Assembly (NCBI GenBank): GCA_963630185.1
Contig: CAVGMG010000001.1
Location: 1 to 45,184, forward strand
Direction: 5' to 3'
DNA: 45,184 bases
Source: Alistipes onderdonkii
GTDB lineage: Bacteria > Verrucomicrobiota > Kiritimatiellia > RFP12 > UBA1067
In this document: in pieces, positions 7,686 to 35,137 of the stretch
How positions within the stretch are numbered: the first letter of the stretch is position 1
Layout of the letters: each line of letters starts with the position of its first letter
Notes under the pieces: model-generated
What the model was told of the DNA's origin: nothing
Databases searched by the model: none
Seen by the model: only the letters and a program-made list of their open reading frames with translations
Program-made: the position numbers and the translations under genes

Positions 7686-7686
7686 A

Positions 7687-17869: not shown

Positions 17870-18344
17870 CCTGGGCTACGGCACGCGCGTCGAGACGGCG
17901 ACGCAGGAGGACCTCGACTACGTCCAGGCGAACTTCCGCGAGGGCGAGCGCCTGGAGCAGGAGGCCGTCGGCGCGGGGCATGACACGCTCGGCATGTTCG
18001 AGCGGTGCTTCACGGTCTGGTTCAAGGACGAGAGGATCGGCTACTGCGGCGTCATGGTCCCGCCCGGCCACACGATCCTCTCCGACGAGCGCTTCCTCGC
18101 CTACATGAGCTGCGAGAACGCGAACCGGCACAAATACGCCTACGTCAAGATGTCGCGCCCCGTCCTCCGGGCAATCGTCGGCGAAGTCCAGCCGTGGGTG
18201 ACGACGTTCCACTCCTTGCCGGACGCGCGCTACCGGCAGAGCGTCGCGTGGCACGAGCGCGTCCTCAGGATGCGCCGCGCCGGGTCTTTCCGGTACAAGG
18301 GCTCGACCCTCGTCCATTTCGTCATCAGCAGAAAGGAAACCTGA
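17859..18344 (+). CDS. Internal virion protein A-like (position of T7 gp13)
   Basis: 161 aa. Assigned mainly by synteny after the gp12-like gene. Confidence 0.4.
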   Translation: MRLDLGYGTRVETATQEDLDYVQANFREGERLEQEAVGAGHDTLGMFERCFTVWFKDERIGYCGVMVPPGHTILSDERFLAYMSCENANRHKYAYVKMSRPVLRAIVGEVQPWVTTFHSLPDARYRQSVAWHERVLRMRRAGSFRYKGSTLVHFVISRKET

Positions 18345-18346
18345 AC

Positions 18347-19057
18347 ATGTTCACTCTCTTGGCATTCACGGGCGCCGCCATGCTCGGCTACGGCTTTTCC
18401 TCGGTCATGACGGCCCTCCTCGCCGACGTCGCCGTCACCGGCATCGCGCTCTCGACCTACTCCACCTACCAGCAGGGCGTCGCGCAGGGCAAGGCGAACG
18501 AGGCCAGCGCGAAGATCGCGGCGAACCAGGCGGCGGCGCAGGAGGCCCAGGCCCAGGAATACGAGCGGCAGGCCGCGCTCCAGAAGGAGCAGGAAGGCCT
18601 CGACCAGATCCAGGGCGAGCAGGAGGCGGCCAAGCGCGCCCGCGCCCGGGCGGCCGAAGTCGGCTCGACCTACGCCGCCGCCGCCGGCAACGGGCTTCTC
18701 GTGAGCGGCTCCGAGACCGACACCTTCGCGAACGTCCTCAAGTCGCAGGAGCAGGAGGCCCAGGCGGACATCCAGACGATCAGGGCCAACACGGCGCTCG
18801 GCGTCTGGAGCCGCGAGGAGCAGGCGCGGAGCTACCTCGTCGCGGCCCAGCAGTCGCGATACGGCGTCACCGGCTCGCTCCTGTCGTCGTCGAGCTATGC
18901 GAGCCAGGCGAGATACGCCCGCTCGAACGGCATCACCTCGGCCGCCGGGAGCGCGCTTTCGGGCGTGGCGACGACGGCGATCGGCGCGAACGGCCTCGCC
19001 AAGGAGACGGGCGGCTACCAGTGGGGCGGGACGAAGGTCGCCGCCTCGGCGAAGTAA
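18347..19057 (+). CDS. Internal virion protein B-like (position of T7 gp14), N-terminal membrane segments plus Ala/Gln-rich coiled coil
   Basis: ATG 18347. MFTLLAFTGAAMLGYGFSSVMTALLADVAVTGIAL followed by AAQEAQAQEYERQAALQKEQE. Confidence 0.45.
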   Translation: MFTLLAFTGAAMLGYGFSSVMTALLADVAVTGIALSTYSTYQQGVAQGKANEASAKIAANQAAAQEAQAQEYERQAALQKEQEGLDQIQGEQEAAKRARARAAEVGSTYAAAAGNGLLVSGSETDTFANVLKSQEQEAQADIQTIRANTALGVWSREEQARSYLVAAQQSRYGVTGSLLSSSSYASQARYARSNGITSAAGSALSGVATTAIGANGLAKETGGYQWGGTKVAASAK

Positions 19058-19080
19058 GAAAAAAAAGGAGGGGGCGAGAG

Positions 19081-21239: not shown

Positions 21240-24200
21240 GTGACCGACGACATTCTCCATTCGCAAGACCCGGCGGCGTCCGACGACGCCGCGCCGAAGG
21301 ACGCCGCCTCAAGCGGCGTGAACGACGACGCCGTCCTCCACGCCCCCGACCTCCAGAGGGCGGCGGCGCGCGCGCTCGTGGCCGTTCCGAAGGACGAGGA
21401 CGACTATTCGGCGCGCGTCCGCGCGAAGACGCTTTCCGAGGCGCTCGGCCGCGCCATCGCCCTCGCGAAGCGCGAGGCCCCGGACGGGACCGCCGCGCCC
21501 GAGGAGCGCGACGCCGCCGAGCGCGCGACGGCCGACGCGATTGGCGCGACGCTCACCGGCAAGCACGACTACGACGGGGCGATGTGGAACCGCCAGAGGC
21601 CGTTCGCGTCCGGCGCGGCCTACGCGGCGCACATGCGCGACCTCGTCCTCAACAGCCCGGACGCCGGTCTCACGGAGGAGGCCAAGGCGTTCTACGCGGC
21701 CGATTACGACACGCAGGTGCGCCTCGCGCTCGAACACGAAGGGACGCTCGACGCCGTCAAGCGCGTCGCGGCCGACGCGCTTGACGCGCTGCGCCCCGTC
21801 TCCCGCCCGCTCTCGCGGCTTGAGGAGTCGGAGGCGGACGACGAGACGCGCGGGGCATCGGCGACCGTCTTCGTCGCCAACATGGGCGGCACGGACATTG
21901 ACGAAAAGACGCTCGACGCGGCGAAGGCGAAGGTCGCCGCGTTCCGCGAGAGGCGGCGGCGCGAGGAGATCCGCCGGAAATACGAGGCGAAGCTCAATGC
22001 CGACAACGCCTGGAACGCCTTGACGAGCATCCTGCCGACGCTCTCGGAGGACGCGCAGACGTGCGCGAAGGCGATCCTGGACTCGCCGGAGAACAAGTTG
22101 CCCTACGAGCACTACGCAAAGTTCAACGCGCTTCCGCGCCGCGAGCGCGAGCTCGTCGTCCAGACGCGCCAGCTCGCGAAGGACAGGGTCGACTCGGGCG
22201 TCTGGAACACGCTCCAGGACGCCGGGATCGGCGCGTTCAACGTCGCCTCGGCCGTCGTCGCGGCGCCGTTCCGGCAGGGGGCGAAGCTCGGGCGCGGCAT
22301 CTACGACGCCGTGGCGGGCCTCAACGCGCCGGAGACAGACCCGAGCGACGTCCGCGACGCCATCACCAGCGCCGACGAGGCGGGGCTCGACGTGAACGAG
22401 CTCGCCGTCAGGCGGCAGCTCCTCTGGCAGGCGACCGGCGACTTCCTTGCCGGCGGCGACCTCGAAAGCGCCGCGTTGCCGCAGCTCCAGTTCGAACAGG
22501 TCTGCGAAGACCACGGCGTCGTCGGCGAGGCGGTGATCGGCGCGGTCTCGACGCTTCCCTACATGGCGGCGGCGGCGATCCCGCGCGTCGGCCTGGGGCT
22601 TGTCGCCCTGGAGGCGATGCAGGAGTTCGACGACCACGTCGCCCTGAACGGCGGCGACATCACCGACCGCCGCTACCTCATGTCGTCGTTCGTGATGGGC
22701 GGGCTCTACGCCTACGTCGAACGCCTCCAGGTCGAGAGGCTCATCGGCGGCGTCAGCGAGCAGCGCGTCCGCGAAGGGCTTCTCAAGGGCTTCTGGAGCG
22801 GCATCAAGAACGGGACGGTGCCGAGGGTTTTGACGGTCGAGACGCTCTCCGAGTCGATCCAGGAGGGCTTGCAGAACGGCGTCATGGCCGTCAACAACGC
22901 CTACGCCCTGGACGAGGACGCCGTCCGCGGCTTCGGCGAGGCGTTCGTCGACGACTTCGTCGGCTCGCTCGGGACGATGGCGATCGTCGGCGCGGGCGGG
23001 CTCGTGGTCGGGCACGCCCGGCGAAGCGGTCTGCACGTCCGGGGGCGTGACGGGCTGTCGGCGGCGGACATGCGCCGCCTGGAGCGCTCCGCCGACCTCA
23101 CGAACCTCTACCGGACGATGTTCGCGCACGACAACATGGTCGAGGCGGCGGCGCGGTCGTCCAATTACCGCCGCCGCGCGATGGGCGAGGAGCTCCAGGC
23201 GCTGCGCGGCCGCTGGCTGGAGGGCGGCAAGGCCGCTCTCGTCGCGCAAGGCGGCGTCAGCGAGCAGGCGGCCGAGAGCCTCGACGGCTTCTTCGCCGCG
23301 CTCCGCGCCGCCGAGGGGTCGGAGGCGGTGTCCGCCGCCTCGTCGGCGCTCGGCGAATGGAACGCCGCGCGCGGCCTCGAAGCGTCGCCGAAGGCGGGCG
23401 AGAGGGGCGACATCGGGCAGCAATACCTCGAAAACCTGATCCGTGCGTTCACGGACGGCGGCATGTCGCGCGACGACTTTACGGGTCGCCTCGTCTCGAT
23501 GGGGTTCTCCGAGAAGGGCGCGGGCGACTACGCCGCCTGGGCGGCCCTCGAACGCGCCGTCCGCGAGAGGGCGGCGCAGGTCGGCGCGTTCGTCGAAGGG
23601 CGATACGAGCGAAAATACGGTTCCAACGCGGCGGAGAGCGCCGACGTGAGCCGCGTCAGGAAGTCCTTCCAGAACCTCGACCGGGCGCGGAGCGTCTGGG
23701 CGCAAGGCCTGGGCGTCTACAGCCGCAACGCCGACGGTTCGGTGCAAGACCCCGGCGCAAAAGCCCTTGAGGCGTTCGGTTTCGCGAAGGAGGACGCCGA
23801 GTCGCTTTCCCGGCTGTTCCACTACGAACGCGCGGCGGCCTGTTCGCGCGTCGCGCTGGACGGCGTCCGCGCCCTCTACGAAAAGGCGACAAAAGGGCGC
23901 GTCGGCGGCAGGGAGGCCCTCGCGAGAGAATTCAAGGGGCGCGTCGTGCGCCTTCCGGCCGGCACGGACGCCAAGGGCAGGGAGACGTTTGGCGACTTCA
24001 TCCGCTTCGAGATGCCGGGCGGCCGGGGCGAGGCCTTCGTCCGGATCGTCGAGACCAGGGCCGTCGAGCCGGACTTCTCGAAGGCCAATCCTTTCGTCGC
24101 CGAGTCGGTCGCCGAAACGGCGAAGGGCTGGGCGAAGCCCGTCACGGCGGACGACTGGATGCGGGCGACGCCCGACGAGCGCAGGAGGATCTGGAGGGAA

Positions 24201-27200
24201 CACGGCCTGCACGACGAGGGCTTGTTCGTGGCAGACCCGACCGTCTCGCTCGTCCTCGACGGCGACCCGTCCGCGCGCGTCGACTCCGACGGGGCGAAGC
24301 GTCTCGTCTTCGGGACGATCGCGCTTGCCGACGAGTCGGGCGTCAAGACGCTTGACGACCTTTCGCCGGTGAAAATCGTCGACTCGTCCGCCGGCTTCCA
24401 CGAGGTCTACCACGCCTGGGAGCACTTCATGCGCGCGACGGGGCAGTGGACGGAGAAGGAGGAGGCGGCGCTCGCCGCGAAATACGGCAAGGCCCTCGGC
24501 GGCCGCCACGACGAAGAGGCGGCGGCGAACGCGATGCGCAGCTACATGAACCGGCGCATTGAAGGGCGGATGTCTGCCGAGGACGAGACGAGCCCCTTCG
24601 GGAAAATCTACGCGCTCGCCAGGAGGCTCGTCCGGCGCGGCGAGGAGATGAAGGCGAAAGAGCGCATCGCGTCGACCGCCGAGGAGGCCTTCTTCGACCA
24701 GATCGTCGCCGACCGCTATTCGGGCGTCGGCGAACTCGGAAAGCCCGAGAAGAAGGAGGAGAAGGGCGGCGAGAAGGGAAAGTCGGAAGCCTCCGCCGCG
24801 CCGCAGATGCCGGGGCGCAAGGAGACATCAGTCGCCGCGCCCGCCCCTGCGGCGTCGTCGACGGAGGCGGGCTCTTCCGCGTCGAAGCCCGGAGCCTCGC
24901 CTCTTCCCGCCGCGCAGAGGGGGTGGACGGCCTACACGCCGACGGGGAACGTCAAGGTCGGCGGGCATTACGCCGTCGTCGACCTCTCGGAGATCGTCCA
25001 CTCGAACAACCCGGCCTACGCGCTCTACATGCGCGCGCAGCTTCGCAACCGCAAGGACAACAAGGCCGAGGAGGACACGCGAAAGGACATCGTCAACAAC
25101 TTCCAGGCCGAGAGGCTGCTTGAAGCGCCCGACACGGCGAACGGCGCGCCGATCGTGTTCGCCGCGCCGGACGAGAAGGGCGTCAGCCGCCTGTTCGTCC
25201 TGTCCGGGAACGGGCGCGTCCTCGTCCTCAACGAGCTCGCGGAGCGCCACCTCTACGACCGCTACAGGAACGTCATGAAGGCGTGGGCGGCCGAGAACGG
25301 CCTTGCCGTGCCGGAGGGCGAGACGCCGGTGCTCGTGCGCGTCGTCACGGACTTCGGCGGCGCGACGCGCGAGCAGGTCGCCGACCTCTCGAACACGAAC
25401 TCGATCCAGCAGTATACCGAGGAGGAGCAGGCGCGCGCGGACGCGGAGGTGGTCAAGGCGCTCGGCATCGCGGGCCTCTACCACGCGAACGCGAACGGCA
25501 CGGCCGACATGACGCCCGGCGTCAACGACGAATTCTTCGCGGCGTTCATCCGGGGCGTCGGCGACACCTCGCTCTACAACTCCGACCGCTCGCTCACGGA
25601 GACCGCCCGCGTCCGCGCCGTCCGCGCGCTTCTGGCGATCGCCGTCGGGCAGGGGCCTCGCGGCCGCGACGTCGTCCGGAAGCTGGTCGAGCAGACCGAC
25701 ACGCTCAACATCGCGCGGCAGAAGAACGCGGCGGCGATCATGGCCGCCGCCGTCGCCTCGCTTGAAGAGAAGGACGCCTACGCGATCGGGCCGGACCTCT
25801 CCCGCGCGATGGCCGACTTCGTCGACTTCGCCGAGAGGAGGAAGGCCGGGAAGGTCGCCACCTTCGACGACTACTACAACCAGATGGACCTCCTTGACGC
25901 GCCGAGCGAGATCTCGCGCGAGATCCTCCGGCTCTTCGGGTCCAAGCAGCCTGCGGCGGACATCGCCGAATACGTGACCGTCTACTGCAACGCGGCGGCG
26001 CAGGAAGACCCGACCGGCGGGCTTTTCGGAAAGGACGCCGCCAGGAGCCGCCTCGACGTCTGGAACGACGCGAAGAGGCTTGTGGACTCTCGTCGCGTGG
26101 CGGACGGCGGCGCGGCGCGGCATTCGTTCAAGGCCGAGACGAGGACGCTCTACCACGGCAGCGCGGCGGACTGGATCCGCCCCGACCTCCGGCACGTCGG
26201 CGAGGGGCAGGGCGGCGACTACCAGGGCTACGGGCTCAACATGACCACGAGCCGCTCCGGCGCGGAGCTCTGGGCGTCCGTCGCCAAGACGCAGCGCGCC
26301 CTCCGCGCCAAGGGGCCGATCGAAGGCGTCAAGGCCTTCTTCGCCCCGAAATTCGTCTACTCGGCCGAGATGGACAAGTCCGCGCACGTGGTCGGCTACT
26401 TCGACCCCGTTTCGCCGGACGTCGCCGAAGCCGTCCGCGCCGCGCTGGACGCGGAGGCGATTCCGCTGTCGGAGGAGGACGAGGAGGCGTTCGCGAAGCT
26501 TGCCGGGCGTCCGTTCGAGCGCCTGGCGAAGTTCGTCGCGTCCCGCGAGAGGTTCGGCGTCAGGATCTCGCCGAAGACGGCGGCGGACGTCCTCGTTCGC
26601 GCCGGGATCGACGCGAGCTGGACGCCGTCCGTCTCCGGCGACGCGGCGACAGACCGCGACTACACCGTCTACAACGTCGCGCGGCTCACGAACTACCACC
26701 AGTGGGCGAACGGCGTCCAGCGGCATTCGTTCAAGGCCGCCGCGCCCGAGGTGACGGCGTCCGATTTCGACGCGGCGATTGAAAAATACGGCGAGGCCGA
26801 AGACGTGTCGCAGGCCGTCTACGCGCTTCCGGACGGGCGGCTCCTGCGCGGCAAGGGCGTCGAGATCACGCGCGGCGGACGGACGTTCACGTCGTTCGGG
26901 CACGACGGCCTCGCCGAAGACGTCATGAAGAAGGTCGCGGCGAAAGCGTCCGATGGAAAAAGCCCCGCCGCCTCCCTGGACGAGAGGATGGGGGCGGCGC
27001 GGCGGGCGATCGCGAGGGCCGGCGCCATCCGCCTCGGATGGGACGGAAGCCTCCTTGAAACCTTCAAGGAGCCGACTCCTGCCCAGTGCGACAGGCTCTA
27101 CGACGTCGTCTACGAGGCCTACGACCTCGCGGAGAGGCAGGGTGACGTCCGTGGCGTCACCGTCGACGTCTCGGACGCGGACGGCGTCGTCGCCTTCGCG

Positions 27201-30200
27201 GTCGCCTACCGCGCCGGGACGTCGCCGCGCCGGATCGTCGAAGACCTGCGCGGGTGGTATCGCGAGGGCGTCCTGCCGCTCGGCGCGAAAGGCCCGGCGG
27301 CCGACCTCGCGCAGGTCGAGGCCTCGCCGAGGCACTCGATCGCCGGGGTCGACTTCAGCGCGATGGCGAAATACTACCAGGGCGACGTCCGCGAGATCGC
27401 GCGGGAGCTCAAGCGGTCGAACCCCTACGCCCTGAAGCTCGCGGCCGAGGCGATGGCGAGGGCCGTCCCGGACGGCGCGGTGCTCGTCCCCGTGCCGGGC
27501 CACGACGGACGCGCGGGCGACACGTTCGCCCTGGCGAACGAGATCGCCGCGATCACCGGCTCGCCCGTCGTCGAGGCGCTGCGCGGCACGCCGCGCCGCG
27601 CCGTCTACGAGCAGAAGCGCGAGGGCGTCCTGCCGTCCGCGTCGGCGCTCGGCTTCAGGCGTTTCGCCGCCCTGCCGCCCGGCCGCGAGGTCGTCTTCGT
27701 CGACAACGTCGTCGGGACCGGCACGACGGCGGTCGCGGCGCGCGAGGCGCTCGGGACGGGGCGCGTCCTGGCGTTCGCGTGGGACCACACCGCGCCGCGC
27801 CCGGTCGGCGTCGTCGGCGGGCTCGACGGCGCGGCGCGGCACTCGTTCGCCGGGCTGCGCGGGCAGGGCGCGGCGGGCGTCCGCGCCGTCGGCGACGCCG
27901 AGGCGCTGGAGTCGCGCGGCGTCGGCCGCGAGGCGGTCTTCCGCCTCACGGGGTGGTATCGCGGCGCGGACGGGCGCTGGCGCGTGGAGCTTCCGTTCCA
28001 CGGCGCGTTCGTCTTCGAGGGCGACTTCGACGACGGCCTCGTCAAGGGCTACCGCACCGTCGGCGACTACTTCGACTGGCCGGAGCTCTTCCAGGCCTAC
28101 CCCGAGCTGAAGGACGTCGAGGTGCGCTTCGACGACCTCCCCGACGACGTGCGCGGCGACTTCGACCCGAAAACCAAGACGATCCGCATCGCGAACGCCG
28201 TCCGCCGGGGCGGGTCCGGCGCCCTGGCGCGGCGCCGCGTCGCGCCGGTCATGGTGCACGAGATCCAGCACGCGATCCAGTCCATCGAGAACCACGCGCG
28301 CGGCGGCGACCCCGACGACCTGCTCGCGCTGGACCGGAAGAAGGCGCTCGACGAGGTCTTCCGCCTGTCGCTCGCGCGCGCCCTCGCGAAGACCAAGGCC
28401 GAGAAGGCCGAGATTTCGGAGAAGATCGAGGAGCTCGAGCGCAGCCTCGCCGCCGACGCCGAGGCCGCGTTCGAGCGATACTACCGCCTCGCCGGAGAGG
28501 TCGAGGCGCGGAACGCGGCCCTGCGCTTCTCCAAGAGCCCGTCGTGGCGGCTTTCGCATCCGCCGTGGGAGACGGAGGAGGTCGGGCGCGACCGGCAGCT
28601 CGTCGACTTCAAGGAGGAGGACGGCGTCCACTGGGACGACGCCGCGCCGGACGCCCGCCGCTCGGTCACGTCGGCCTGGGGCGAGGGCTTCCCGGATGTC
28701 GCCTACATGACGACGCGCAAGTTCGTCCTCGCGAACCCGGAGCTCGACAGGCTCCACCGCGAGGCGAAGGCCGGAAGCCTGGCTGCCGCGCTCGCGTTCG
28801 TCGACCGTCTTCTGCCGGACGCGCCGACGAGCGAGTCGGAGAAGGTGCGCGTCCGCAAGATCAAGGATCTCGCGGCAGACCACCCGACGGCCGTTCTCGT
28901 CCCGGTCGTCGCGATGGAGCGGACAGGCCACAACATGCTGCCGTTCGCCTACGCGCAGAGAATCGGCGAGATCACGGGCCTCAAGCTCGCGAGGGGCGTC
29001 AAGCAGAGCGTCAAGGCGAACCACACCGGCGCGAGCGGACTCGAGCGCCTCGTGCGCCGCGCCGAGTTCGTCGGGGACGTGACGCCCGGCCGCGAATACG
29101 TCATGGTCGACGACCACGTCACGCAGGGCGGGACGCTCGCGGCCTTGCGACGTCACGTCGCGGATCGCGGCGGAAAGGTCGTCGCGGCGACGACCTTGAC
29201 AACGTCGCGCGGAAGTAGTATACTGTCTCCACGTGATTCGACGCTTGAAAAACTCGCCGCGAAGTTCGCAAGCGTCCTTGCAGAACTCAAGGAAGCAGGT
29301 GCAGAAGATGCCATCGCAGACCTTACAGAATCCCAAGCCCGACAGCTCCTCAAATACTCCGTTGACTCCTTTGGAGATCTTGCAGCTCGAGCACTCGTTC
29401 GCCGTCGCGGCGAGGGAGCTCATCAAGATGGGCCGGGCGACGCCGGACTCGTTCGAGCCGCGCTTCGACCCGGAGGCTCCGACCAAGCTGGAGCTCGTCC
29501 AGGGATGGCCGGGGGAATGGGAGATCCTGCCGGACGGGGAGCTCAGATACCTCTGCGGGACGTTCGATGGTCTTTCGCAGGACGATCCAAGGCACTTGAT
29601 GTAGGCGACGTCCTTCCGGGGCTGCGCCCGCTCTACGACCATGACGCGAAGCGGCTCGGCGAGACGTTCTTCGCCAGGTCGCCGCTGATCAGGGGCCCCG
29701 TCTCGAAGGATCTTCACGACGCGATTGACGAGGCCGGCAGGGCCGGGGAGATGCCGGACGGCGAGAAGCGCGGCCTTCTCGAACGGCTCGTCGGCGAGAT
29801 CAAGGCGTCCAAGGAGGGGAAAGTCCTCTTCGGACGCTACAGGACGGGCGACTCGTGGGACGGCACGGAGGACGACTGGCTCCGCCCGGAGCGCGTCAGG
29901 CTGCGCGAGCGTATCTTCCGCGACCTCGTCCTGGCGCCGGTCACGTCCGCCAACAGCGAGGCGCTTGAGCCGAACCGGCTGACCGGCAAGGCGAAAGGCG
30001 CGGAGGCGATTGCTCGTTCGAACGCGGCGAACCCCGACCTGCCGAAGATCTCGCTTGGTGCGGACGCCCGCTACGCGCCGTCGCGCGAGCGGCGGCTCGA
30101 CATCGTGATGGGGCCTTCGGCGGCCGGGAAGTCGAGCGTGTTCGTCGACCTCCTGTCTGTCTGCCACCGGGCGCGCGTCTTCGATTCGGACGCGGTCAAG

Positions 30201-33200
30201 AAGCGTCTGCCGGGCTTCGACGGCGGCAACGGCGCGAGCTTCGTCCACGAGGAGTCGAGCCGGATCAACAAGGAGATGATCCGCCGCTTCCTCGACATGA
30301 ACACGGGCGAGAACGTCGTGCTGCCGATCGTCGGGGCGACGGAGAAGGGCGTCAGGAGATACGTCGAGCTCTTCCGCGACGCCGGCTACGCAATCTACCT
30401 GCACAACGACCGCGTGCCGATTCTGCACGCCTTCCACCGCGCCTGGCTGCGCACGCTCGCGACAGGCCGCCTCATCGCGCCGGAGGTGTTTCTCGGCTGC
30501 ATGGACAATCCGTCGGTCGTCTTCGAGCGCCTACGCCGCGAGGTCGACTTCTGGGACGAGTTCGACAACGACGACGTCACCGTCGGCGCCGCGCCGCGCT
30601 ACGTGCGCGGCAACTACTCGGAGCCGGCCTACGGGACGGCGTCGGAAGCGGCGTCGGCGAAAGAGCCCGGCCTGGAAAGCCTTGAAGACTGGAAGAAGCG
30701 TCTTGCAACCCCTCAGGCGATTGCCGACATGGCCGCCGCGATGGACATGGAGGAGCGCGGCGACAAGGCCGCCGCGCCCGTCCTCCGGCAGGGCGAGTTC
30801 GACTTCGGACCGGACGCGGAGGCGAGCTCCAGGCACGCGATCCGCGCCGACCTCGGCGAGAGGCGCGAGAAGGCGGCGGCCGAGGCGCTGACGAACTGGA
30901 TCACCTACTTCCGGCTCTCGCGCGGCTCCGTCCCCATGGCGAAGACCATCGCGCGGATGGGCCTTGCCATGGGCATGGGCGTCGTCGACACGAAGCGGAT
31001 CCTCCAGTCGTCGGAAAGCCGCGCCGAGCAGATGCGCGGGTCGCTCATCGAGAAGGCCGCCCAGAACGGCGACGTCGCCACGACCCTCGCGCTTTTGAAG
31101 CGCGAGGACGGCATCGACGAGTCGATCGACGGCCTTCTCGCCGGCTCCGTCGCCCAGGGCGGCGAGCTGACGCGCGCGGGCTCCGGGCGGATCAACACGA
31201 TCATCGGAAAGCGCGTCGAGCAGATGATGCGCGACTTCTCGGCCGCGTCGCTCGCCGACATGGAGGGCGAGACAGGCCTCGACCTCGCGGCGGAAATCCT
31301 CGAGCAGAACCCCGACGCCTTCGCGGGCGAGGTCAAGTCCGCCCGTGGCGCGGACGCGGCGGACGACGCCGGCAAGGACGCCGCGTCCGACGCGGACAAG
31401 GAAGAGGGCGGCGGCGCGGCCGACGAGAGCCGTCTTTCGGATCTCGAACGCCATGTCCGCGAGCGTGCGCGGCAGGACGCGCTCAAGAAGGTCGAGTCGT
31501 TCATCGCCCGGGCGAAGGCCCGCGCCGAGGAGAACAGGGCCCGCGCCGAGGAGCGGCGTCGGCGCGGCGAAGCGGACGGCGGGCGCGACGGGGCCGGCGT
31601 CGGCGACGGCGCGGACGGCAGGCCCGCCGCCGTGGACATGGATCAGGCCGTGTCGGACGCGATGGGCGGGACGAACCCGAAGAACGTCAAGGCCGACTTC
31701 AGGAGCAAGGAGGAGTTCGCGGCGTTTCTGCGCGTCTGGGCGGAGCACAAGTTCGACAAGACGCACGGGCTCTCGTCGCTCGGCAAGACGGAGCGCGGCA
31801 GGCTCTTCGCCGAGTTCTACCGGATCACCGTCCGCAAGGAGCTCCAGGACCTCGCCGACAAGCTCCTCGCGCCGAAGGACGAGAGCGGGTTCACGGTCTA
31901 CCGCCTCGCCAGGCTCGGCAACGGCGCGAGGAATGTCGTGAGCCGCCGGCTCGCCCGGATGGAGAAGGGGATTCGCCCGGACGCCATCGAGCGGATGAGC
32001 GCCGACGTCTTCGCCTTCATCAACGCGGCCGCGATCCGCGTCAGCCGGACCGACCTCGTCAACGAGTTCAAGAAGGAGATCAAGTCCAGATACGTCAAGG
32101 GCGAGCGATACGAAGACCTCAAGCTTGACGCCGACCGCCGCGTGACGGGCTGGGTGGAGGAGGCGGCGCGATACATCTGCCGCGTCTGCGACCTCTCGAA
32201 GCGCGGCGCCAACGGCGACATGTCGCAGCTCGAACGCGAGCGCAAGGCCCTGCTCGACGTCATCGACCGCCGGGCGGACGTCTACGACGAGTCCGGCAAG
32301 GACGCCGTCCGGGCGCCCGTCGAGGACATGGAGACGAAGAAGGCCATGTGGAAGCTCGCGCTCCTCGACAAATACGGCGCGATGGCCTCGCTCATGCCGG
32401 GCGAGATCCTCGACCTGCGCCAGGCCGCGATCGAGCATCTTGAACGGCAGGCCGGCGAGCTCGAGCGGCTGTGGCAGGACGCGCGGGCCTACGAGGAGGG
32501 CATCCGGAGCGACCTCGCCGGCGCGATTGCCGCGCCGAACGGCCAGCGCTACCAGGAGCGCGGGTGGCTCGGCGGACGGCTCTTCGACGCGCTGAACGGG
32601 CTTCTCCGTCTTCGGCTCGAACACCTGACGCGCTTTGCGGACGAGGCGGCGCAGAAGCGGGCGAAGGAGGCCATCAACAAGGTCATCGTCCTTCTGGGCG
32701 ACGGCGAGACGGCCTACGCGCGCATGCTCCAGGACGACCGGCGGGCGCTTTTCGAGGGGCTTGCGCACATCTTCGGCCGGAACGGACGCGCGGACAACGC
32801 CGCGATCAAGCGGTATCTGAACCGCATGACCGAGCCGATCCCGGTCGAGCTCGCGCGGCGGATCTCCAGCCAGGGCTTCGTCGGCACGATGACATACGGG
32901 CAGATGCTGCAGCTTCTCGTCTCGCTGGAGCAGAGGTCGTTCAAGGACGCGGTCGAGCACAACGGACGGCAGGGGCAGGCCGAGCTGATCCGCACGTTCG
33001 AGACGACGGACGCCGACGGGCGGCGCGTCCGCGTCTTCACGGAGGAGGACGGGCTTTTCGTCGACTGGCTCCGGGCGTTCTACGCGGCCAAGCGCGACGT
33101 GATCTCGCCGGTGACGCTGCGCATGGTCGGCCAGGCGGTCGATTCGCCCGATCCGCTCTACTGCCCGGTCAGGCGCTCGATGGACGACCGCACGATGGCT

Positions 33201-34601
33201 CTTGCGGAGGCCGGCTCGACGTGGGACCCGGTCGCGGCCGTCTTTTCGCGGCGCGTGAAGAACGACCGCGACTTCGACGAGCAGGCGTCTGTCCTCGGGA
33301 TGTTCTTCGACCGTTCGCGCGAGACGGCGAAGCTCGTCGCCTGGGCGGAGCGCGGGACGATCGTCCGCGGCGTGTTCACGAGTGTCTCCGTGCAGAGCGC
33401 GATCCGCCGCGCCTTCGGCAGCGGGGAGCTGCGCAAGATCATGAAGCAGCTCGTCGCGACGTTCAACGGCGGGGAGGCCAAGTCGAAGACGTCCGGCGAG
33501 CTCGCGGCGGTCGACAAGGCCCTGAACTTCACGACCTACGCCTATCTCGGCTTCAACCCGCTTTCGGCCGCCAAGCAGACGACAAGCTTCACCGTCTGGG
33601 CGAACGCGCTGCCGGGCGGCTTCAAAGACCTCTGGAAATACATGACGCACTTCGACGCGAAGGCGCTCAGGCATTTGATGGAGTCCGAGGAATACAAGCT
33701 GCGGTATGGCGACGAGGTCGGCTCCGGGCAGGATCTCGCCACCAAGGGGCTCAACATGAATCCGTCGATGAACCCGGTCGTCCGCATGATTTCCGGGGCT
33801 GGCATGTGGATGCTCAAGAAGGGGGACTTCGCGCCGGGAGGGTGGATCGCGCAAGGCCTTTACAAAGACCTCCTCGACAGGCACATGCAGGAGGGGATGG
33901 CGTTCGACGCGGCCGACAGGCTCGCGATCACCGAGACGTTCAACATGCTAGAGGAGACGCAGCAGTCGGGCCGCACCTACAACACGAACATGCTCACGAT
34001 CGAGCACGGGCGGATCGGGCGGCTGCTGACGCAGTTCGCGACGTCGCCCCTGCAGCAGTTGCAGTACGAGACCCAGGCGTGGCGCGAATGGCGCGACATG
34101 GTGCGATACGGCCAAGGCAAGCGGAAGATCGCGGCGGCGCGGCAAAAGCTCGTCCGGGCGGCGGTCATCAACCACCTGCTCCTGCCGGCGGCGCTCAACT
34201 TCGTGACGGCCGTCTACAAGAAGCTCATGGGCGACGAGCCGCCGTGGGAGCAAGACGGCTACCACTGGACGCTCCTCACGGAGGTTCTCCTCGGGCAGTT
34301 CGAGCGGGTGTTCTTCGTCGGGGCGTTCGCGCAGACGTCGCTCAAGGCGCTCTTTGCGCGGGAATATCCGCGCGGGAGCAAGATCCTGCCGGTCGAGGGG
34401 GCGCTCGGCATGGCGGCGTCGCTGTGCTTCACGGCGCACGACGTGGCCGCGCTGGACGCGGAGAAAGTCCGCAAGGACCTTGAGCGGCTGCTCAAATCGA
34501 CGGCGCCGACGCGGATTCCGTTCAACCTCTACCGTCGGATCGTCGGCGATTCGGACGTCGACCGCAAGGCGGCGAAGGAGAAGGCGAAGAAGCGTCAGTA
34601 G
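21240..34601 (+). CDS. Giant (4453-codon) polyvalent internal-virion/ejection-type protein carrying multiple enzyme modules
   Basis: GTG 21240 lies 9 nt after aaagaggaga. The frame is open to TAG 34599-34601. The first 781 codons of the 5234-aa track ORF are off-frame sequence of the gp15-like gene. Occupies the position of T7 gp16. See the frame anomaly at 29200-29604. Confidence 0.75.
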   Translation: MTDDILHSQDPAASDDAAPKDAASSGVNDDAVLHAPDLQRAAARALVAVPKDEDDYSARVRAKTLSEALGRAIALAKREAPDGTAAPEERDAAERATADAIGATLTGKHDYDGAMWNRQRPFASGAAYAAHMRDLVLNSPDAGLTEEAKAFYAADYDTQVRLALEHEGTLDAVKRVAADALDALRPVSRPLSRLEESEADDETRGASATVFVANMGGTDIDEKTLDAAKAKVAAFRERRRREEIRRKYEAKLNADNAWNALTSILPTLSEDAQTCAKAILDSPENKLPYEHYAKFNALPRRERELVVQTRQLAKDRVDSGVWNTLQDAGIGAFNVASAVVAAPFRQGAKLGRGIYDAVAGLNAPETDPSDVRDAITSADEAGLDVNELAVRRQLLWQATGDFLAGGDLESAALPQLQFEQVCEDHGVVGEAVIGAVSTLPYMAAAAIPRVGLGLVALEAMQEFDDHVALNGGDITDRRYLMSSFVMGGLYAYVERLQVERLIGGVSEQRVREGLLKGFWSGIKNGTVPRVLTVETLSESIQEGLQNGVMAVNNAYALDEDAVRGFGEAFVDDFVGSLGTMAIVGAGGLVVGHARRSGLHVRGRDGLSAADMRRLERSADLTNLYRTMFAHDNMVEAAARSSNYRRRAMGEELQALRGRWLEGGKAALVAQGGVSEQAAESLDGFFAALRAAEGSEAVSAASSALGEWNAARGLEASPKAGERGDIGQQYLENLIRAFTDGGMSRDDFTGRLVSMGFSEKGAGDYAAWAALERAVRERAAQVGAFVEGRYERKYGSNAAESADVSRVRKSFQNLDRARSVWAQGLGVYSRNADGSVQDPGAKALEAFGFAKEDAESLSRLFHYERAAACSRVALDGVRALYEKATKGRVGGREALAREFKGRVVRLPAGTDAKGRETFGDFIRFEMPGGRGEAFVRIVETRAVEPDFSKANPFVAESVAETAKGWAKPVTADDWMRATPDERRRIWREHGLHDEGLFVADPTVSLVLDGDPSARVDSDGAKRLVFGTIALADESGVKTLDDLSPVKIVDSSAGFHEVYHAWEHFMRATGQWTEKEEAALAAKYGKALGGRHDEEAAANAMRSYMNRRIEGRMSAEDETSPFGKIYALARRLVRRGEEMKAKERIASTAEEAFFDQIVADRYSGVGELGKPEKKEEKGGEKGKSEASAAPQMPGRKETSVAAPAPAASSTEAGSSASKPGASPLPAAQRGWTAYTPTGNVKVGGHYAVVDLSEIVHSNNPAYALYMRAQLRNRKDNKAEEDTRKDIVNNFQAERLLEAPDTANGAPIVFAAPDEKGVSRLFVLSGNGRVLVLNELAERHLYDRYRNVMKAWAAENGLAVPEGETPVLVRVVTDFGGATREQVADLSNTNSIQQYTEEEQARADAEVVKALGIAGLYHANANGTADMTPGVNDEFFAAFIRGVGDTSLYNSDRSLTETARVRAVRALLAIAVGQGPRGRDVVRKLVEQTDTLNIARQKNAAAIMAAAVASLEEKDAYAIGPDLSRAMADFVDFAERRKAGKVATFDDYYNQMDLLDAPSEISREILRLFGSKQPAADIAEYVTVYCNAAAQEDPTGGLFGKDAARSRLDVWNDAKRLVDSRRVADGGAARHSFKAETRTLYHGSAADWIRPDLRHVGEGQGGDYQGYGLNMTTSRSGAELWASVAKTQRALRAKGPIEGVKAFFAPKFVYSAEMDKSAHVVGYFDPVSPDVAEAVRAALDAEAIPLSEEDEEAFAKLAGRPFERLAKFVASRERFGVRISPKTAADVLVRAGIDASWTPSVSGDAATDRDYTVYNVARLTNYHQWANGVQRHSFKAAAPEVTASDFDAAIEKYGEAEDVSQAVYALPDGRLLRGKGVEITRGGRTFTSFGHDGLAEDVMKKVAAKASDGKSPAASLDERMGAARRAIARAGAIRLGWDGSLLETFKEPTPAQCDRLYDVVYEAYDLAERQGDVRGVTVDVSDADGVVAFAVAYRAGTSPRRIVEDLRGWYREGVLPLGAKGPAADLAQVEASPRHSIAGVDFSAMAKYYQGDVREIARELKRSNPYALKLAAEAMARAVPDGAVLVPVPGHDGRAGDTFALANEIAAITGSPVVEALRGTPRRAVYEQKREGVLPSASALGFRRFAALPPGREVVFVDNVVGTGTTAVAAREALGTGRVLAFAWDHTAPRPVGVVGGLDGAARHSFAGLRGQGAAGVRAVGDAEALESRGVGREAVFRLTGWYRGADGRWRVELPFHGAFVFEGDFDDGLVKGYRTVGDYFDWPELFQAYPELKDVEVRFDDLPDDVRGDFDPKTKTIRIANAVRRGGSGALARRRVAPVMVHEIQHAIQSIENHARGGDPDDLLALDRKKALDEVFRLSLARALAKTKAEKAEISEKIEELERSLAADAEAAFERYYRLAGEVEARNAALRFSKSPSWRLSHPPWETEEVGRDRQLVDFKEEDGVHWDDAAPDARRSVTSAWGEGFPDVAYMTTRKFVLANPELDRLHREAKAGSLAAALAFVDRLLPDAPTSESEKVRVRKIKDLAADHPTAVLVPVVAMERTGHNMLPFAYAQRIGEITGLKLARGVKQSVKANHTGASGLERLVRRAEFVGDVTPGREYVMVDDHVTQGGTLAALRRHVADRGGKVVAATTLTTSRGSSILSPRDSTLEKLAAKFASVLAELKEAGAEDAIADLTESQARQLLKYSVDSFGDLAARALVRRRGEGAHQDGPGDAGLVRAALRPGGSDQAGARPGMAGGMGDPAGRGAQIPLRDVRWSFAGRSKALDVGDVLPGLRPLYDHDAKRLGETFFARSPLIRGPVSKDLHDAIDEAGRAGEMPDGEKRGLLERLVGEIKASKEGKVLFGRYRTGDSWDGTEDDWLRPERVRLRERIFRDLVLAPVTSANSEALEPNRLTGKAKGAEAIARSNAANPDLPKISLGADARYAPSRERRLDIVMGPSAAGKSSVFVDLLSVCHRARVFDSDAVKKRLPGFDGGNGASFVHEESSRINKEMIRRFLDMNTGENVVLPIVGATEKGVRRYVELFRDAGYAIYLHNDRVPILHAFHRAWLRTLATGRLIAPEVFLGCMDNPSVVFERLRREVDFWDEFDNDDVTVGAAPRYVRGNYSEPAYGTASEAASAKEPGLESLEDWKKRLATPQAIADMAAAMDMEERGDKAAAPVLRQGEFDFGPDAEASSRHAIRADLGERREKAAAEALTNWITYFRLSRGSVPMAKTIARMGLAMGMGVVDTKRILQSSESRAEQMRGSLIEKAAQNGDVATTLALLKREDGIDESIDGLLAGSVAQGGELTRAGSGRINTIIGKRVEQMMRDFSAASLADMEGETGLDLAAEILEQNPDAFAGEVKSARGADAADDAGKDAASDADKEEGGGAADESRLSDLERHVRERARQDALKKVESFIARAKARAEENRARAEERRRRGEADGGRDGAGVGDGADGRPAAVDMDQAVSDAMGGTNPKNVKADFRSKEEFAAFLRVWAEHKFDKTHGLSSLGKTERGRLFAEFYRITVRKELQDLADKLLAPKDESGFTVYRLARLGNGARNVVSRRLARMEKGIRPDAIERMSADVFAFINAAAIRVSRTDLVNEFKKEIKSRYVKGERYEDLKLDADRRVTGWVEEAARYICRVCDLSKRGANGDMSQLERERKALLDVIDRRADVYDESGKDAVRAPVEDMETKKAMWKLALLDKYGAMASLMPGEILDLRQAAIEHLERQAGELERLWQDARAYEEGIRSDLAGAIAAPNGQRYQERGWLGGRLFDALNGLLRLRLEHLTRFADEAAQKRAKEAINKVIVLLGDGETAYARMLQDDRRALFEGLAHIFGRNGRADNAAIKRYLNRMTEPIPVELARRISSQGFVGTMTYGQMLQLLVSLEQRSFKDAVEHNGRQGQAELIRTFETTDADGRRVRVFTEEDGLFVDWLRAFYAAKRDVISPVTLRMVGQAVDSPDPLYCPVRRSMDDRTMALAEAGSTWDPVAAVFSRRVKNDRDFDEQASVLGMFFDRSRETAKLVAWAERGTIVRGVFTSVSVQSAIRRAFGSGELRKIMKQLVATFNGGEAKSKTSGELAAVDKALNFTTYAYLGFNPLSAAKQTTSFTVWANALPGGFKDLWKYMTHFDAKALRHLMESEEYKLRYGDEVGSGQDLATKGLNMNPSMNPVVRMISGAGMWMLKKGDFAPGGWIAQGLYKDLLDRHMQEGMAFDAADRLAITETFNMLEETQQSGRTYNTNMLTIEHGRIGRLLTQFATSPLQQLQYETQAWREWRDMVRYGQGKRKIAAARQKLVRAAVINHLLLPAALNFVTAVYKKLMGDEPPWEQDGYHWTLLTEVLLGQFERVFFVGAFAQTSLKALFAREYPRGSKILPVEGALGMAASLCFTAHDVAALDAEKVRKDLERLLKSTAPTRIPFNLYRRIVGDSDVDRKAAKEKAKKRQ
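22220..23015 (+). other. Cluster of about 4 hydrophobic (membrane-insertion-like) segments in the giant protein
   Basis: GIGAFNVASAVVAAPF, VIGAVSTLPYMAAAAIPRVGLGLVAL, LMSSFVMGGLYAYV, FVGSLGTMAIVGAGGLVVG. Confidence 0.4.
24399..24413 (+). other. HEXXH motif 1 (HEVYH) in the giant protein
   Basis: cac gag gtc tac cac, in context SSAGFHEVYHAWEHF. Confidence 0.4.
24921..25440 (+). other. ParB/sulfiredoxin-like module in the giant protein
   Basis: GHYAVVDLSEIVHSNNP...RLFVLSGNGRVLVLNELAE. GNGR (25206-25217) occupies the place of the ParB GxxR motif. It follows a Lys/Glu/Ser/Pro-rich linker. Confidence 0.35.
26118..26720 (+). other. ADP-ribosyltransferase-like module (H-Y-[E/D] type)
   Basis: TLYHGS (His), YQGYGLNMTTS (Tyr) and RDYTVYN (acidic position, 26652-26672), in the order and spacing expected of PARP/diphtheria-toxin-like ARTs. 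Confidence 0.4.
27330..27836 (+). other. Phosphoribosyltransferase (PRTase, ComF-like) module 1
   Basis: VLVPVPGHDGRAGD...REVVFVDNVVGTGTT (PRPP loop at 27690-27728; D-N instead of D-D). Confidence 0.6.
27837..28620 (+). other. Zincin-like metallopeptidase module (polyvalent-protein type), HEIQH at 28257-28271
   Basis: DWPELFQAYPELKDVEVRF...APVMVHEIQHAIQSIENHARGG...YYRLAGEVEARNAALR. Confidence 0.55.
28846..29215 (+). other. Phosphoribosyltransferase module 2
   Basis: AVLVPVVAMERTGHNMLP...REYVMVDDHVTQGGTLAAL (PRPP loop at 29097-29135). Confidence 0.6.
30060..30560 (+). other. Zeta-toxin-like P-loop kinase module
   Basis: Walker A GPSAAGKS at 30111-30134, followed by VFDSDAVKKRLP and FVHEESSRINKEMIRRFL, as in zeta/PezT-type kinases. 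Confidence 0.6.
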
Positions 34602-35096: not shown

Positions 35097-35104
35097 ATAA
35101 GAAA

Positions 35105-35137
35105 TGCCGAAGTTGTTGAGCTTCGGCACTTTTTATT
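35105..35137 (+). terminator. Rho-independent terminator
   Basis: 8-bp stem tgccgaag/cttcggca, 8-nt loop, then ctttttatt. Confidence 0.7.

Follow-up and report, generated by a model that had tools for sequence, protein, structure and literature searches.

The window analysed here, a stretch of 45,184 nucleotides, carries a single gene of 4,453 codons. We regard its product, with a probability of about 0.75, as a large internal virion protein that would be ejected at infection, polyvalent in build and belonging to a temperate podovirus of ~45 kb with a T7/BPP-1-type structural module. As judged from alignments, relatives have two scaffolds in common, one of ~1,600 aa at the N-terminus and an all-helical one of ~1,250 aa at the C-terminus, and the enzyme cargo between the two is swapped.

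21240..34601, + strand: giant polyvalent-protein gene, 4,453 codons plus TAG (homologues P0022-P0025, L004-L006, L019, L020)

GC content by codon position shows that the gene is coding in a single frame from GTG 21240 to TAG 34601 on the forward strand. GC3 is 0.87–0.99 from ~21240 through 34601, with a low-GC3 patch at 29205–29800 that the preliminary description of this DNA had missed. The frame that closes at TAG 34601 is already open from 18705; however, 5′ of 21240 it is a mere off-frame reading over the 729-aa gene at 19021–21210. An AGAGGAG sequence lies 10 nt 5′ of GTG 21240, and a homologue of 73% identity (P0022) starts at the same residue, MTDDILHS. These observations bear out the start codon, the good ribosome-binding site and the share of ~30% of the genome that had been proposed for the gene. 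The first 55 nt of the contig are identical to its last 55 nt. Therefore, the contig is circularly closed at ~45.13 kb and the giant gene makes up 29.6% of the genome.

Upstream on the same strand are genes for TerL, portal, MCP, tube A, tube B and an internal virion protein. Three genes occupy the slots ahead of the giant gene.

17859..18344, + strand: 161-aa gene behind tube B, at the position of T7 gp13
18341..19057, + strand: product of ~238 aa at the gp14 position, matching phrog_418 'internal virion protein' at E 7.5e-8
19021..21210, + strand: 729-aa gene in the gp15 position, similar in size to T7 gp15 (747 aa) and BPP-1 bbp11 (720 aa)

No family match was obtained for the 161-aa or the 729-aa gene. 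The slot of the former holds genes of 163–169 aa in three other phage contigs (L003, L019, L020), whilst the ~238-aa internal virion protein and the 729-aa product are homologous to genes of 333 aa and 708 aa (E 5e-18), respectively, in L003. The order nozzle, ~165 aa, ~240 aa, 610–730 aa and giant gene is likewise found in L003, L019 (giant protein of 5,192 aa) and L020 (4,113 aa); independent phage contigs of 41–47 kb thus show the same order, with giant homologues of 4.1–5.2 kaa. The giant gene adjoins the integrase and lysogeny region, and in L020 an integrase follows it. The phage carries an integrase and a diversity-generating retroelement (DGR), and we found no RNA polymerase in its genome. 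Its structural genes are closest to those of BPP-1 and Pelagibacter podophages, INPHARED holds no near-identical phage, and the host is probably a Kiritimatiellae/Lentisphaerae-type (PVC) bacterium. Candidate receptor-binding genes lie elsewhere in the genome, namely the DGR target gene and a collagen-like gene. Of the T7 gp16 position after gp13/14/15-like genes originally assigned to the giant gene, the slot behind the tail-tube genes and three internal-virion-protein genes stands, whereas the T7-like character of the phage overall does not.

The two scaffolds comprise the following parts.

21240..24356, + strand: helical part of the N-terminal scaffold, aa 1–1039 (29–73% identity in P0022-25, L004, L006)
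24357..24629, + strand: first HExxH region of the N-terminal scaffold, with the zincin-like motif FHEVYHAW, aa 1054–1058 (conservation)
24957..25346, + strand: DdrB-like ParB domain, aa 1240–1369 (PF18763, E 6.9e-17, 62.2 bits against a cut-off of 27.6)
25347..26117, + strand: conserved helical extension behind the ParB domain, end of the N-terminal scaffold, aa 1370–1626 (BLASTP conservation)
30831..34598, + strand: C-terminal scaffold, all-alpha, aa 3198–4453, opening with RHAI (homologues, AF2 model)

Apart from the ParB domain, Pfam and PHROG scans returned nothing for either scaffold; the helical extension (aa 1370–1626) matched no family in either collection and the first HExxH region none in Pfam. 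BLASTP conservation with L004, L005, L006, L002 and P0021 stops at aa 1590–1616. Hydropathy places hydrophobic helices at aa 439–457 (22554–22610) and aa 573–591 (22956–23012) of the N-terminal scaffold, and at aa 4304–4322 (34149–34205) of the C-terminal one. Residues H1054, E1055 and H1058 are invariant (alignments A3 and A4), and BPP-1 bbp10 and the distant giant relatives likewise have a HExxH at the equivalent site. An AF2 model of the N-terminal scaffold consists of helices at low confidence (pLDDT 53). The C-terminal scaffold is found at 40–86% identity in 19 proteins and is also common to L004-6 and P0023-25. Its AF2 model (pLDDT 69.9, pTM 0.67) has no match in the PDB (best E 0.11, TM ~0.1); in BFVD it has 64 matches at E <1e-3, which fall on the C-terminal portions of large polyvalent proteins from viruses. 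The predicted C-terminal fold is therefore widespread among viral polyvalent proteins. The C-terminal 1,453 aa gave no tblastn match among 50,697 phage records. We had also considered that the scaffolds exist as stand-alone genes (P0020 in L003 and P0015 in L002) and have withdrawn this: the split in L003 is one in-frame TAA in a conserved stretch, after which homology resumes in the same frame, and that in L002 is a single frameshift within a low-complexity spacer.

Between the scaffolds lies a variable cargo section of ~1,570 aa, whose modules differ among relatives in a BLASTP map. In the window it is arranged as listed; some relatives have RadC and ART-PolyVal as cargo instead.

26118..26720, + strand: cargo module 1, ART-like, aa 1627–1827, RHSF start, LYHGS inside (DUF3990)
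26721..27329, + strand: cargo module 2, aa 1828–2030, RHSF start (also in P0022 and P0028)
27330..27836, + strand: cargo module 3, ComF-like phosphoribosyltransferase (PRTase-1), aa 2031–2199, RHSI start, PRPP loop VFVDNVVGTGTT (Pribosyltran)
27837..28655, + strand: cargo module 4, LPD23 plus putative zincin (HEIQH, aa 2340), aa 2200–2472, RHSF start (LPD23)
28656..29384, + strand: cargo module 5, second phosphoribosyltransferase (PRTase-2), aa 2473–2715, RRSV start, PRPP loop VMVDDHVTQGGT (phrog_22413)
29385..29609, + strand: G/R-rich linker in the giant frame, aa 2716–2790, low GC3 (codon-position GC)
29610..30830, + strand: cargo module 6, zeta-toxin-like P-loop kinase, aa 2791–3197 (PF06414)

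The kinase module matches PF06414 over aa 2945–3103 (E 4.5e-7; 29.9 bits against a cut-off of 22.3) as well as AAA_33, and has a Walker A sequence, GPSAAGKS, at aa 2958; precomputed annotation places Zeta_toxin on the homologues P0001, P0003 and P0024 too. Module 4 matches LPD23 (PF18838) at E 7e-10 to 1e-10 and also phrog_13543. The matches to ddrB-ParB and LPD23 both exceed curated cut-offs. Peptidase families match both HExxH regions only weakly (DUF6782, SprT-like, Zn_peptidase_2). Amongst homologues of module 4, DUF6782 is found in 6/8 and SprT-like in 3/8 (best E 5.5e-4), Spartan in the PDB is reached at E 0.1, and PF18818 (MPTase) has no match in the giant protein. Two PRTase modules are supported by profile searches, one well and the other moderately. 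PRTase-2 matches phrog_22413 at E 1.4e-39 and NCBIfam PRTases at E 3.9e-6, and reaches 22.6 bits against Pribosyltran (PF00156), slightly under the cut-off of 26.3. PRTase-1 matches Pribosyltran in Pfam weakly (E 0.047), and its profile (alignment A5) finds PRTases exclusively in the PDB, the best being APRT at E 9e-4. Both PRTase types are present in P0045 too, where they form a stand-alone tandem. For module 1, a weak match to DUF3990 (E 0.032) and an hhalign probability of 45% to ART-PolyVal (PF18760; E 2e-4, 44 columns, confined to the YHGS...G.G...A..Y segment) are only suggestive of an ART, and no PDB sequence matched. Module 2 has no match in Pfam or PHROG. Scans of Pfam, NCBIfam and PHROG found no SLT/lysozyme (lytic transglycosylase, peptidoglycan-degrading) domain.

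These results uphold most of the domain reading in the preliminary description, made from the letters alone: the hydrophobic segments, the two HEXXH motifs (aa 1054 and 2340), the ParB-like module and the zeta-toxin-like kinase were all recovered. With ddrB-ParB, LPD23 and Zeta_toxin above threshold in the profile search, the folds it had named are not all absent. Of its two PRTase modules, PRTase-2 is firm and PRTase-1 less so, and its ART-like module stays at the level of a suggestion. The long helical C-terminal part is real, but begins not at ~31700: the conserved unit is already present from ~30831.

Five cargo modules and the C-terminal scaffold open with R-[HR]-[SA]-[FIV]; at the corresponding sites in relatives the motif is R-[YFW]-S-[IV]. 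As a general form of the module-start motif we give R-[HYWF]-S-[FIV]. The junction motif occurs 5 times in the giant protein against 0.25 expected; in 17 giant proteins it was observed 64 times against 11.9 expected, all within the cargo region. A further candidate, RWSF at aa 2776, was rejected as a junction motif since it sits in the linker, where there is no giant-frame selection, and is missing in homologues. The junctions would most likely be processing sites cut by the resident putative zincin or zincins, either prior to packaging or following delivery, and might also act as recombination joints for cassette exchange. Term searches of the paper on polyvalent proteins by Iyer et al. (PMC5512222) brought up neither the module-start motif nor the embedded ORF described below.

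The linker harbours a new element, a conserved ORF in the +1 frame, which had been overlooked in the preliminary description.

29428..29604, + strand: embedded 58-codon ORF in the +1 frame, MGRATPDSF...DDPRHLM and stop (conserved, third-position substitutions)

It has its own ATG, preceded by GAGGGAG at 9 nt, and its stop lies 6 nt ahead of the zeta-kinase module. The same ORF, ending in DPRHLM and stop, is present in L007/L008, L009 and L010. Substitutions within it concentrate at third positions of its codons (24/13/12 overall; 16/5/5 across the final 90 nt), whereas in the flanks on both sides they peak at the third position of the giant frame. This pattern indicates that in 29428–29604 the +1 frame, rather than the giant frame, is under purifying selection. 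The ORF matched no Pfam or PHROG family and shows no similarity to epsilon or PezA. Open +1 stretches of ~70 codons occur at the same place in L019 and L020, with no sequence similarity beyond that imposed by the conserved giant-frame motif; therefore, we claim its conservation only for the clade of the window. Similar low-complexity linkers follow PRTase-2 in P0024, P0025, P0029, P0030, P0034, P0038 and P0041. Speculatively, a separately translated 58-aa protein could be a partner of the zeta kinase, an inhibitor or a chaperone in the producing cell. A more specific proposal, which we hold to be unlikely, is that an antitoxin-like inhibitor or packaging chaperone of the kinase was captured, or arose by overprinting, on the disordered linker, with the module-start motifs serving as sites at which the putative zincin frees each enzyme after ejection. 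If true, a lethal kinase would be made inside a virion protein whilst the producer cell is spared, that is, as an "armed and safetied" effector-delivery polyprotein.

The selection on the +1 frame also raises the question of whether the giant frame is read through at all. Ribosomes might shift into +1 near 29400 and stop at TAG 29604, yielding a ~2,780-aa protein that ends in ...DPRHLM, with the zeta kinase and C-terminal scaffold made separately or by ribosomes that do not shift. The giant-frame peptide here does resemble G/R-rich filler, gene callers split homologous contigs at this point, and the SD-like GAGGGAG lies ahead of the region. Moreover, the chance of the giant frame staying open across the +1 ORF is ~0.4–0.5 under the codon usage of this GC-rich genome, and the case for read-through thus comes chiefly from the missing restart codon in the window and from single-ORF relatives. 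The giant frame contains no ATG, GTG or TTG for ~45 codons past the +1 stop, and the downstream starts called in three homologues differ and are not conserved. PRTase, a similar linker and zeta kinase are called as a single ORF in P0023-25, P0029, P0030 and other distant relatives. We identified no slippery site, the +1 ORF has an ATG and Shine-Dalgarno sequence of its own, and indels between homologues preserve both frames. Two products are therefore unlikely. Far less probable still is an assembly chimera joining several genes. Frames do stay open owing to high GC, the exact succession of module 4 and module 5 was seen in no other assembly, and composition dips at 29.2–29.8 kb. Against this, the codon-position signal runs in one frame without a break across 13.3 kb, and the contig closes on itself. 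Independent assemblies are collinear with the giant protein over aa 1–2240 (P0022, 73% identity) and aa 2795–4442 (P0001-3); P0023, of 5,008 aa, is a collinear full-length relative, and the same scaffolds are present in three full-length relatives. The dip and the +1 ORF themselves recur in three other assemblies.

One intact reading frame thus combines a ParB-like domain, an ART-like module, a putative zincin, a kinase and two PRTases. These predicted activities are disparate, and the product of the frame fits the definition of polyvalent proteins by Iyer et al. 2017, in agreement with the preliminary description. The view that this combination is undescribed goes too far: that paper lists PRTase, zeta-like kinase, ART and zincin among the domains of polyvalent proteins (PMC5512222), and an exhaustive HMMER search with aa 1615–2788 returned 8,232 proteins at E ≤1e-3, many of them of 3,000–7,400 aa. 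The paper also describes polyvalent proteins as packaged and injected, with processed DdrB of P1 incorporated in the head, and names prophages of the Verrucomicrobia/PVC group as carriers (PMC5512222). Members of the class are as a rule inferred to be delivered together with the DNA, which is backed by gp47 of phi24B, detected in virions by proteomics and proposed as an ejection protein (bioRxiv 10.64898/2026.04.10.717836). By analogy, a few copies of the giant protein would be packed in the capsid along with the three smaller internal proteins, and at infection all of these would be expelled through the tail. The scaffolds and hydrophobic helices may take part in, or cross, an envelope conduit, and the enzyme modules would reach the cell along with the DNA. 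There, the DdrB-ParB domain may counter restriction, and the ART, PRTases and kinase may change host proteins and pools of NAD, nucleotides or cell-wall precursors.

The protein could instead be made late and left unpackaged, working in the producing or lysogenic cell, for example as a multi-toxin that brings about exclusion or lysis, or it could be a purely structural component of the tail or a fibre. We consider this very unlikely, despite the lack of homology to solved ejection proteins and the proximity of the gene to the integrase/lysogeny region. Several phages retain this slot, which follows the internal-virion-protein genes and precedes the end of the structural operon, and both DdrB-ParB and LPD domains are characteristic of packaged proteins (PMC5512222); phi24B gp47, which bears LPD domains, is present in virions. 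Moreover, we see no fibre-like repeats and no beta-rich receptor-binding domains, the scaffold models are all-helical, and the DGR target and collagen-like genes offer receptor-binding candidates elsewhere.

A virion protein of this build would not overturn current understanding. It does point to small temperate podoviruses from PVC bacteria of the gut and rumen as a clade that spends 26–33% of the genome on one virion-slot protein, and it provides a clean complete-genome example of the reach of the polyvalent strategy. Two PRTase types, a zeta-like kinase and an ART-like module point to an undissected attack on nucleotide/NAD metabolism. Fixed scaffolds around an exchangeable enzyme cassette would make a natural chassis for protein delivery into cells. 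The module-start motif gives a testable handle on polyprotein processing or shuffling, and the overprinted ORF one on the restraint of toxic modules.

Lastly, we compared the giant protein and its embedded ORF with known systems. Rz1 of phages lies within Rz, in the +1 frame of a larger gene, and the embedded ORF resembles it in this arrangement; it lacks a lipobox, however, and is therefore not a spanin. With epsilon/zeta (PezAT) it shares the placement of a small ORF immediately 5′ of a zeta-family kinase, although here the kinase forms one module within a protein of 490 kDa and is not a free toxin. The giant protein is like T7 gp16 in that its gene lies downstream of the tail-tube genes, after gp13-, gp14- and gp15-sized genes (618/935/161/238/729/4453 aa here against 196/794/138/196/747/1318 aa in T7, whose gp11-16 show a parallel order), and in being the largest of the internal set, mostly helical and with hydrophobic helices. 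However, it is 3.4 times longer and without the N-terminal lytic transglycosylase, and the phage is temperate and without a T7-type RNA polymerase. BLASTP found no gp16 homology, hhalign gave probabilities of 0.2–0.4% between gp16 and the N- and C-terminal scaffolds, also with a 6-member alignment of the gp16 C-terminus, and fold searches of the scaffold models against solved gp16/ejectosome structures found no match (the N-terminal model being of low confidence, pLDDT 53). A 'QFK.F'-like motif, where the best hhalign alignment always fell, was rejected as a sign of homology at a probability of <1%. With three profile-profile tests and two fold searches negative, and no transglycosylase, the initial view that the enzymes are fused to an ejectosome protein rests on gene position.

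BPP-1 has the closest cultured structural module (29% identity in tube B) and the same order of tube A, tube B, internal virion protein, ~720-aa protein and giant protein (bbp14-10); both phages are temperate and carry a DGR. Its bbp10, of 2,052 aa, is a 'crystallin beta/gamma motif-containing protein' of the structural cassette with a HExxH near aa 800. An HMM of the family C-terminus aligns weakly but collinearly with ~280 aa of it (aa 1656–1936; 15.3 bits, i-E 2e-7 in the tiny search space of Z=1), hhalign against the single bbp10 sequence gives a probability of 2%, and BFVD fold matches of the C-terminal scaffold include proteins named 'crystallin beta/gamma motif'. By contrast, bbp10 is half the size, and BPP-1 has a transglycosylase in the gene preceding it, whereas none was found in the window phage. 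The Dar proteins of P1 (DdrB, DarB) and the virion RNA polymerase of N4 are likewise large, head-packed and injected, with zincins tied to processing or encapsidation, and DdrB has the same type of ParB domain, but their other catalytic domains and virion architecture differ. The gp47 of phi24B (2,811 aa) is a very large LPD-bearing podovirus protein too; it differs in its domains (LPD5, LPD1, LPD38 and a MuF-C peptidase) and comes from another host lineage. The closest fit is the class of Iyer et al. (PMC5512222), with which the giant protein shares LPD23 and ddrB-ParB, many unrelated enzymes and a late portal-terminase phage context. It differs from this class in having large N- and C-terminal scaffolds outside existing Pfam and PHROG models; it also stands at the upper end of the published domain counts and takes up 30% of its genome.

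The frame of the giant gene carries no stop from 18705 to the TAG at 34601, and GC content by codon position shows that coding in it begins only at ~21240. From there to 34601, third-position GC (GC3) in this frame is 0.87-0.99 in all 300-nt blocks except two; 5′ of 21240 the high-GC codon position is that of the 729-aa gene at 19021-21210. The GTG at 21240 is preceded by AGAGGAG at a distance of 10 nt, and a homologue with 73% identity (P0022) starts at the same residue. Therefore, the 4,453-codon gene at 21240-34601 (+) is real, and the single open frame from GTG to TAG reported in a preliminary description is borne out. Positions 1-55 of the window are identical to 45130-45184, the contig being a closed circle of ~45.13 kb whose junction is crossed by the TerL gene. 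The giant gene thus makes up 29.6% of the genome.

The + strand encodes TerL, portal, major capsid protein, reverse transcriptase and tail tubular A-like and B-like proteins. A gene of 161 aa comes next, then an internal virion protein (phrog_418), the 729-aa gene and the giant gene, beyond which an integrase, a ParB-like protein and a replication initiator are encoded. With no RNA polymerase detected among the window genes, the phage is a temperate podovirus rather than an autographivirus. Judged from tube B, its closest cultured relatives are Pelagibacter podophages, Bordetella phage BPP-1 and Pseudomonas phages AF and Ab31, whilst Kiritimatiellae and Lentisphaerae MAGs provide host hints. 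The genes after tube B (161, 238, 729 and 4453 aa) mirror T7 gp13-16 (138, 196, 747 and 1318 aa) in size, and their size order is also mirrored by BPP-1 bbp12, bbp11 and bbp10 (231, 720 and 2052 aa). Moreover, the gene order recurs in three independent metagenomic phage contigs:

L003: nozzle, then genes of 166, 333 and 708 aa, then the giant gene
L019 (46.8 kb): 163, 241 and 727 aa, then a 5,192-aa gene
L020 (41.2 kb): 169, 260 and 611 aa, then a 4,113-aa gene, then an integrase

A terminator-like hairpin readable on both strands (35102-35131) separates the giant gene from the integrase gene, and two strong sigma-70-like promoters lie close by on the minus strand (35174-35266). The early region holds a second ParB-like gene (570 aa, 40240-41952; several PHROG ParB families, E down to 2e-22), separate from the DdrB-type ParB within the giant protein. 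Upstream, a complete diversity-generating retroelement (DGR) occupies 7603-11162:

9547-9674, variable repeat, at the 3′ end of a 696-aa gene (7603-9693)
9824-9951, template repeat
10152-11162 (+), reverse transcriptase (phrog_1423, E 3e-50)

At each of the 10 mismatched positions (10/10) within the 128-nt repeat, the template has A. The DGR target gene is directly preceded by a gene ending at 7574 whose 9-nt repeats (7072-7404) encode a collagen-like G-X-Y tract, and whose product is probably a fibre.

Domains of the giant protein were sought by whole-protein and tiled profile searches:

aa 1240-1369, ddrB-ParB, E 7e-17
aa 2031-2199, PRTase-1, weak Pfam match
aa 2202-2252, LPD23, E 7e-10
aa ~2504-2706, PRTase-2, phrog_22413 E 1e-39, NCBIfam PRTases E 4e-6, Pfam 22.6 bits (just under cut-off)
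aa 2945-3103, Zeta_toxin (PF06414), 29.9 bits (cut-off 22.3), Walker A GPSAAGKS

The ParB-like, zeta kinase and PRTase modules named in the preliminary description were recovered by these profile searches. Of its two PRTase modules, PRTase-2 stands; PRTase-1 is weaker in Pfam, and a profile of four homologues searched against the PDB matched phosphoribosyltransferases alone (best E 9e-4). The proposed ART-like module (aa 1627-1827, LYHGS...) is suggestive, with DUF3990 at E 0.032, an hhalign probability of 45% over 44 columns to ART-PolyVal and no match in a PDB search. The HEIQH region C-terminal to LPD23 gave weak but repeated matches to DUF6782, SprT-like and Zn_peptidase_2 across eight homologous modules, and the module at aa 1828-2030 gave no family in the whole-protein and tiled searches. 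In a separate 482-aa protein (P0045) both PRTase types occur alone as a tandem pair, which suggests that they act together.

Local BLASTP searches, with giant ORFs of IMG/VR and metagenomes as targets, served to map the architecture. Two blocks, aa 30-1616 and aa 3192-4450, are conserved in relatives at 29-86% identity, and the cargo section that separates them differs in content or order from one relative to the next, with RadC and ART-PolyVal among its occupants there. No Pfam or PHROG family covers either scaffold. An invariant HExxH lies in the N-terminal scaffold, as do the two hydrophobic helices. The C-terminal scaffold is all-alpha in a moderately confident predicted model (pLDDT 69.9, pTM 0.67) that has no counterpart among solved structures. 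Against BFVD it gave 64 matches at E < 1e-3 (best 1e-14, TM ~0.5) to C-terminal pieces of large viral proteins, under names such as ART-PolyVal-like, LPD-containing, MuF C-terminal, UDP-GlcNAc kinase and 'crystallin beta/gamma motif' protein. A profile HMM built from 14 diverse C-termini aligned to aa 1656-1936 of BPP-1 bbp10 at 15.3 bits.

Scaffold genes that seemed to stand alone in L003 and in another related contig, L002, proved to be the same giant ORF broken by one lesion each, a single in-frame TAA (10719-10721) in the former and a single frameshift in a low-complexity spacer (~4800-5210) in the latter. Assembly error, decay and recoding are all possible causes of these interruptions. 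An 8-kb element beside bacterial housekeeping genes (L001, 92-8048) carries an integrase, five small genes including a Tad2-like gene (anti-Thoeris family) and a 1,625-aa protein consisting of the C-terminal scaffold and 370 further aa; the element resembles a deleted prophage remnant.

A short motif marks the joints of this arrangement. At the start of five of the cargo modules and of the C-terminal scaffold stand RHSF, RHSF, RHSI, RHSF, RRSV and RHAI, and the same places in relatives carry RYSI, RYSV, RFSV or RWSI. The window protein has 5 instances of R[HWY]S[FIVL] against 0.25 expected by shuffling, and [RK][FYWH]S[IVFLM] occurs 64 times in 17 giant proteins against 11.9 expected, essentially always in the cargo region. 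RWSF at aa 2776 was rejected as an instance. We infer that the motif serves in processing, as a joint for recombination, or in both ways. Term searches of Iyer et al. 2017 (PMC5512222), where polyvalent proteins are described, did not return it.

Giant-frame GC3 falls to 0.44-0.74 at 29205-29800. Here A/T-ending codons are used and local GC (29190-29800) is ~0.60 versus ~0.70 in the remainder of the gene. The dip, also present in homologous contigs, extends from the end of PRTase-2 across the linker into the start of the zeta module. It may stem from the constraint of dual coding or from a cassette acquired from a lower-GC donor. Within it lies a further ORF:

29428-29604 (+), 58 codons from ATG to TAG in the +1 frame over linker aa 2716-2790, with GAGGGAG 9 nt 5′ of the ATG

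Its product would be MGRATPDSFEPRFDPEAPTKLELVQGWPGEWEILPDGELRYLCGTFDGLSQDDPRHLM, with predicted peptides ATPDSFEPR, FDPEAPTK and YLCGTFDGLSQDDPR. The ORF is kept, with its DPRHLM* ending, in three other distinct assemblies, where the differences are synonymous in the +1 frame (CCA/CCT/CCG, AGG/CGG/AGA, TTG/CTC, TAG/TAA) and alter giant-frame residues.

Substitutions by giant-frame codon position (1/2/3)
Upstream region: 26/19/38
Overlap: 24/13/12
Last 90 nt of overlap: 16/5/5
Downstream: 11/5/16

The counts switch between codon positions, so selection in the overlap acts on the +1 frame. The ORF has no family match and its stop lies 6 nt 5′ of the kinase module; an antitoxin or a chaperone would be our guess. 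In the distant relatives L019 (20513-20959) and L020 (17216-17635) a +1 stretch of ~70 codons is likewise open over the PRTase-2/zeta linker, where the +2 frame is stop-filled; it has no sequence similarity to the window ORF, and may or may not represent a recurring overprinted gene.

Such an overlap raises the question of whether the giant frame is translated across it, or whether a frameshift or two separate products are involved. We still think that the giant frame is read through, because the window offers no start codon for ~45 codons after the +1 stop, the restarts placed by gene callers in homologues are not conserved, and in more distant relatives a single ORF runs from PRTase-2 through a low-complexity linker to the zeta module. 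That the giant frame is open is by itself weak evidence, the probability of this by chance being ~0.5 under genome codon usage and 0.005 under uniform synonymous choice. Therefore, a frameshift or two products, though unlikely, keep a small share of our belief.

The preliminary description was largely right on the identity and location of the protein. It also proposed injection of the protein, which stands as a hypothesis, and a fusion to a T7 gp16-like ejectosome protein; homology tests against T7 gp16 all failed, so that link is positional only. Its hint that the domain combination might be undescribed does not hold up. In PMC5512222 the polyvalent repertoire covers every assigned domain, ARTs are the commonest protein-modifying domain, DdrB-ParB adjoins virion genes and P1 DdrB enters the head in a processed form. 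An exhaustive search with aa 1615-2788 returned 8,232 proteins at E <= 1e-3 (3,653 at E <= 1e-10), many of 3,000-7,400 aa. Moreover, the podovirus phi24B has in its virions a 2,811-aa LPD protein, a proposed ejection protein (bioRxiv 10.64898/2026.04.10.717836). What merits follow-up is the embedded +1 gene, along with the junction motif and the design of scaffolds plus cassette. Taken together, the published domains, the thousands of relatives and the phi24B protein place the giant protein within a known class, as a large, well-preserved polyvalent protein in a little-studied host group.
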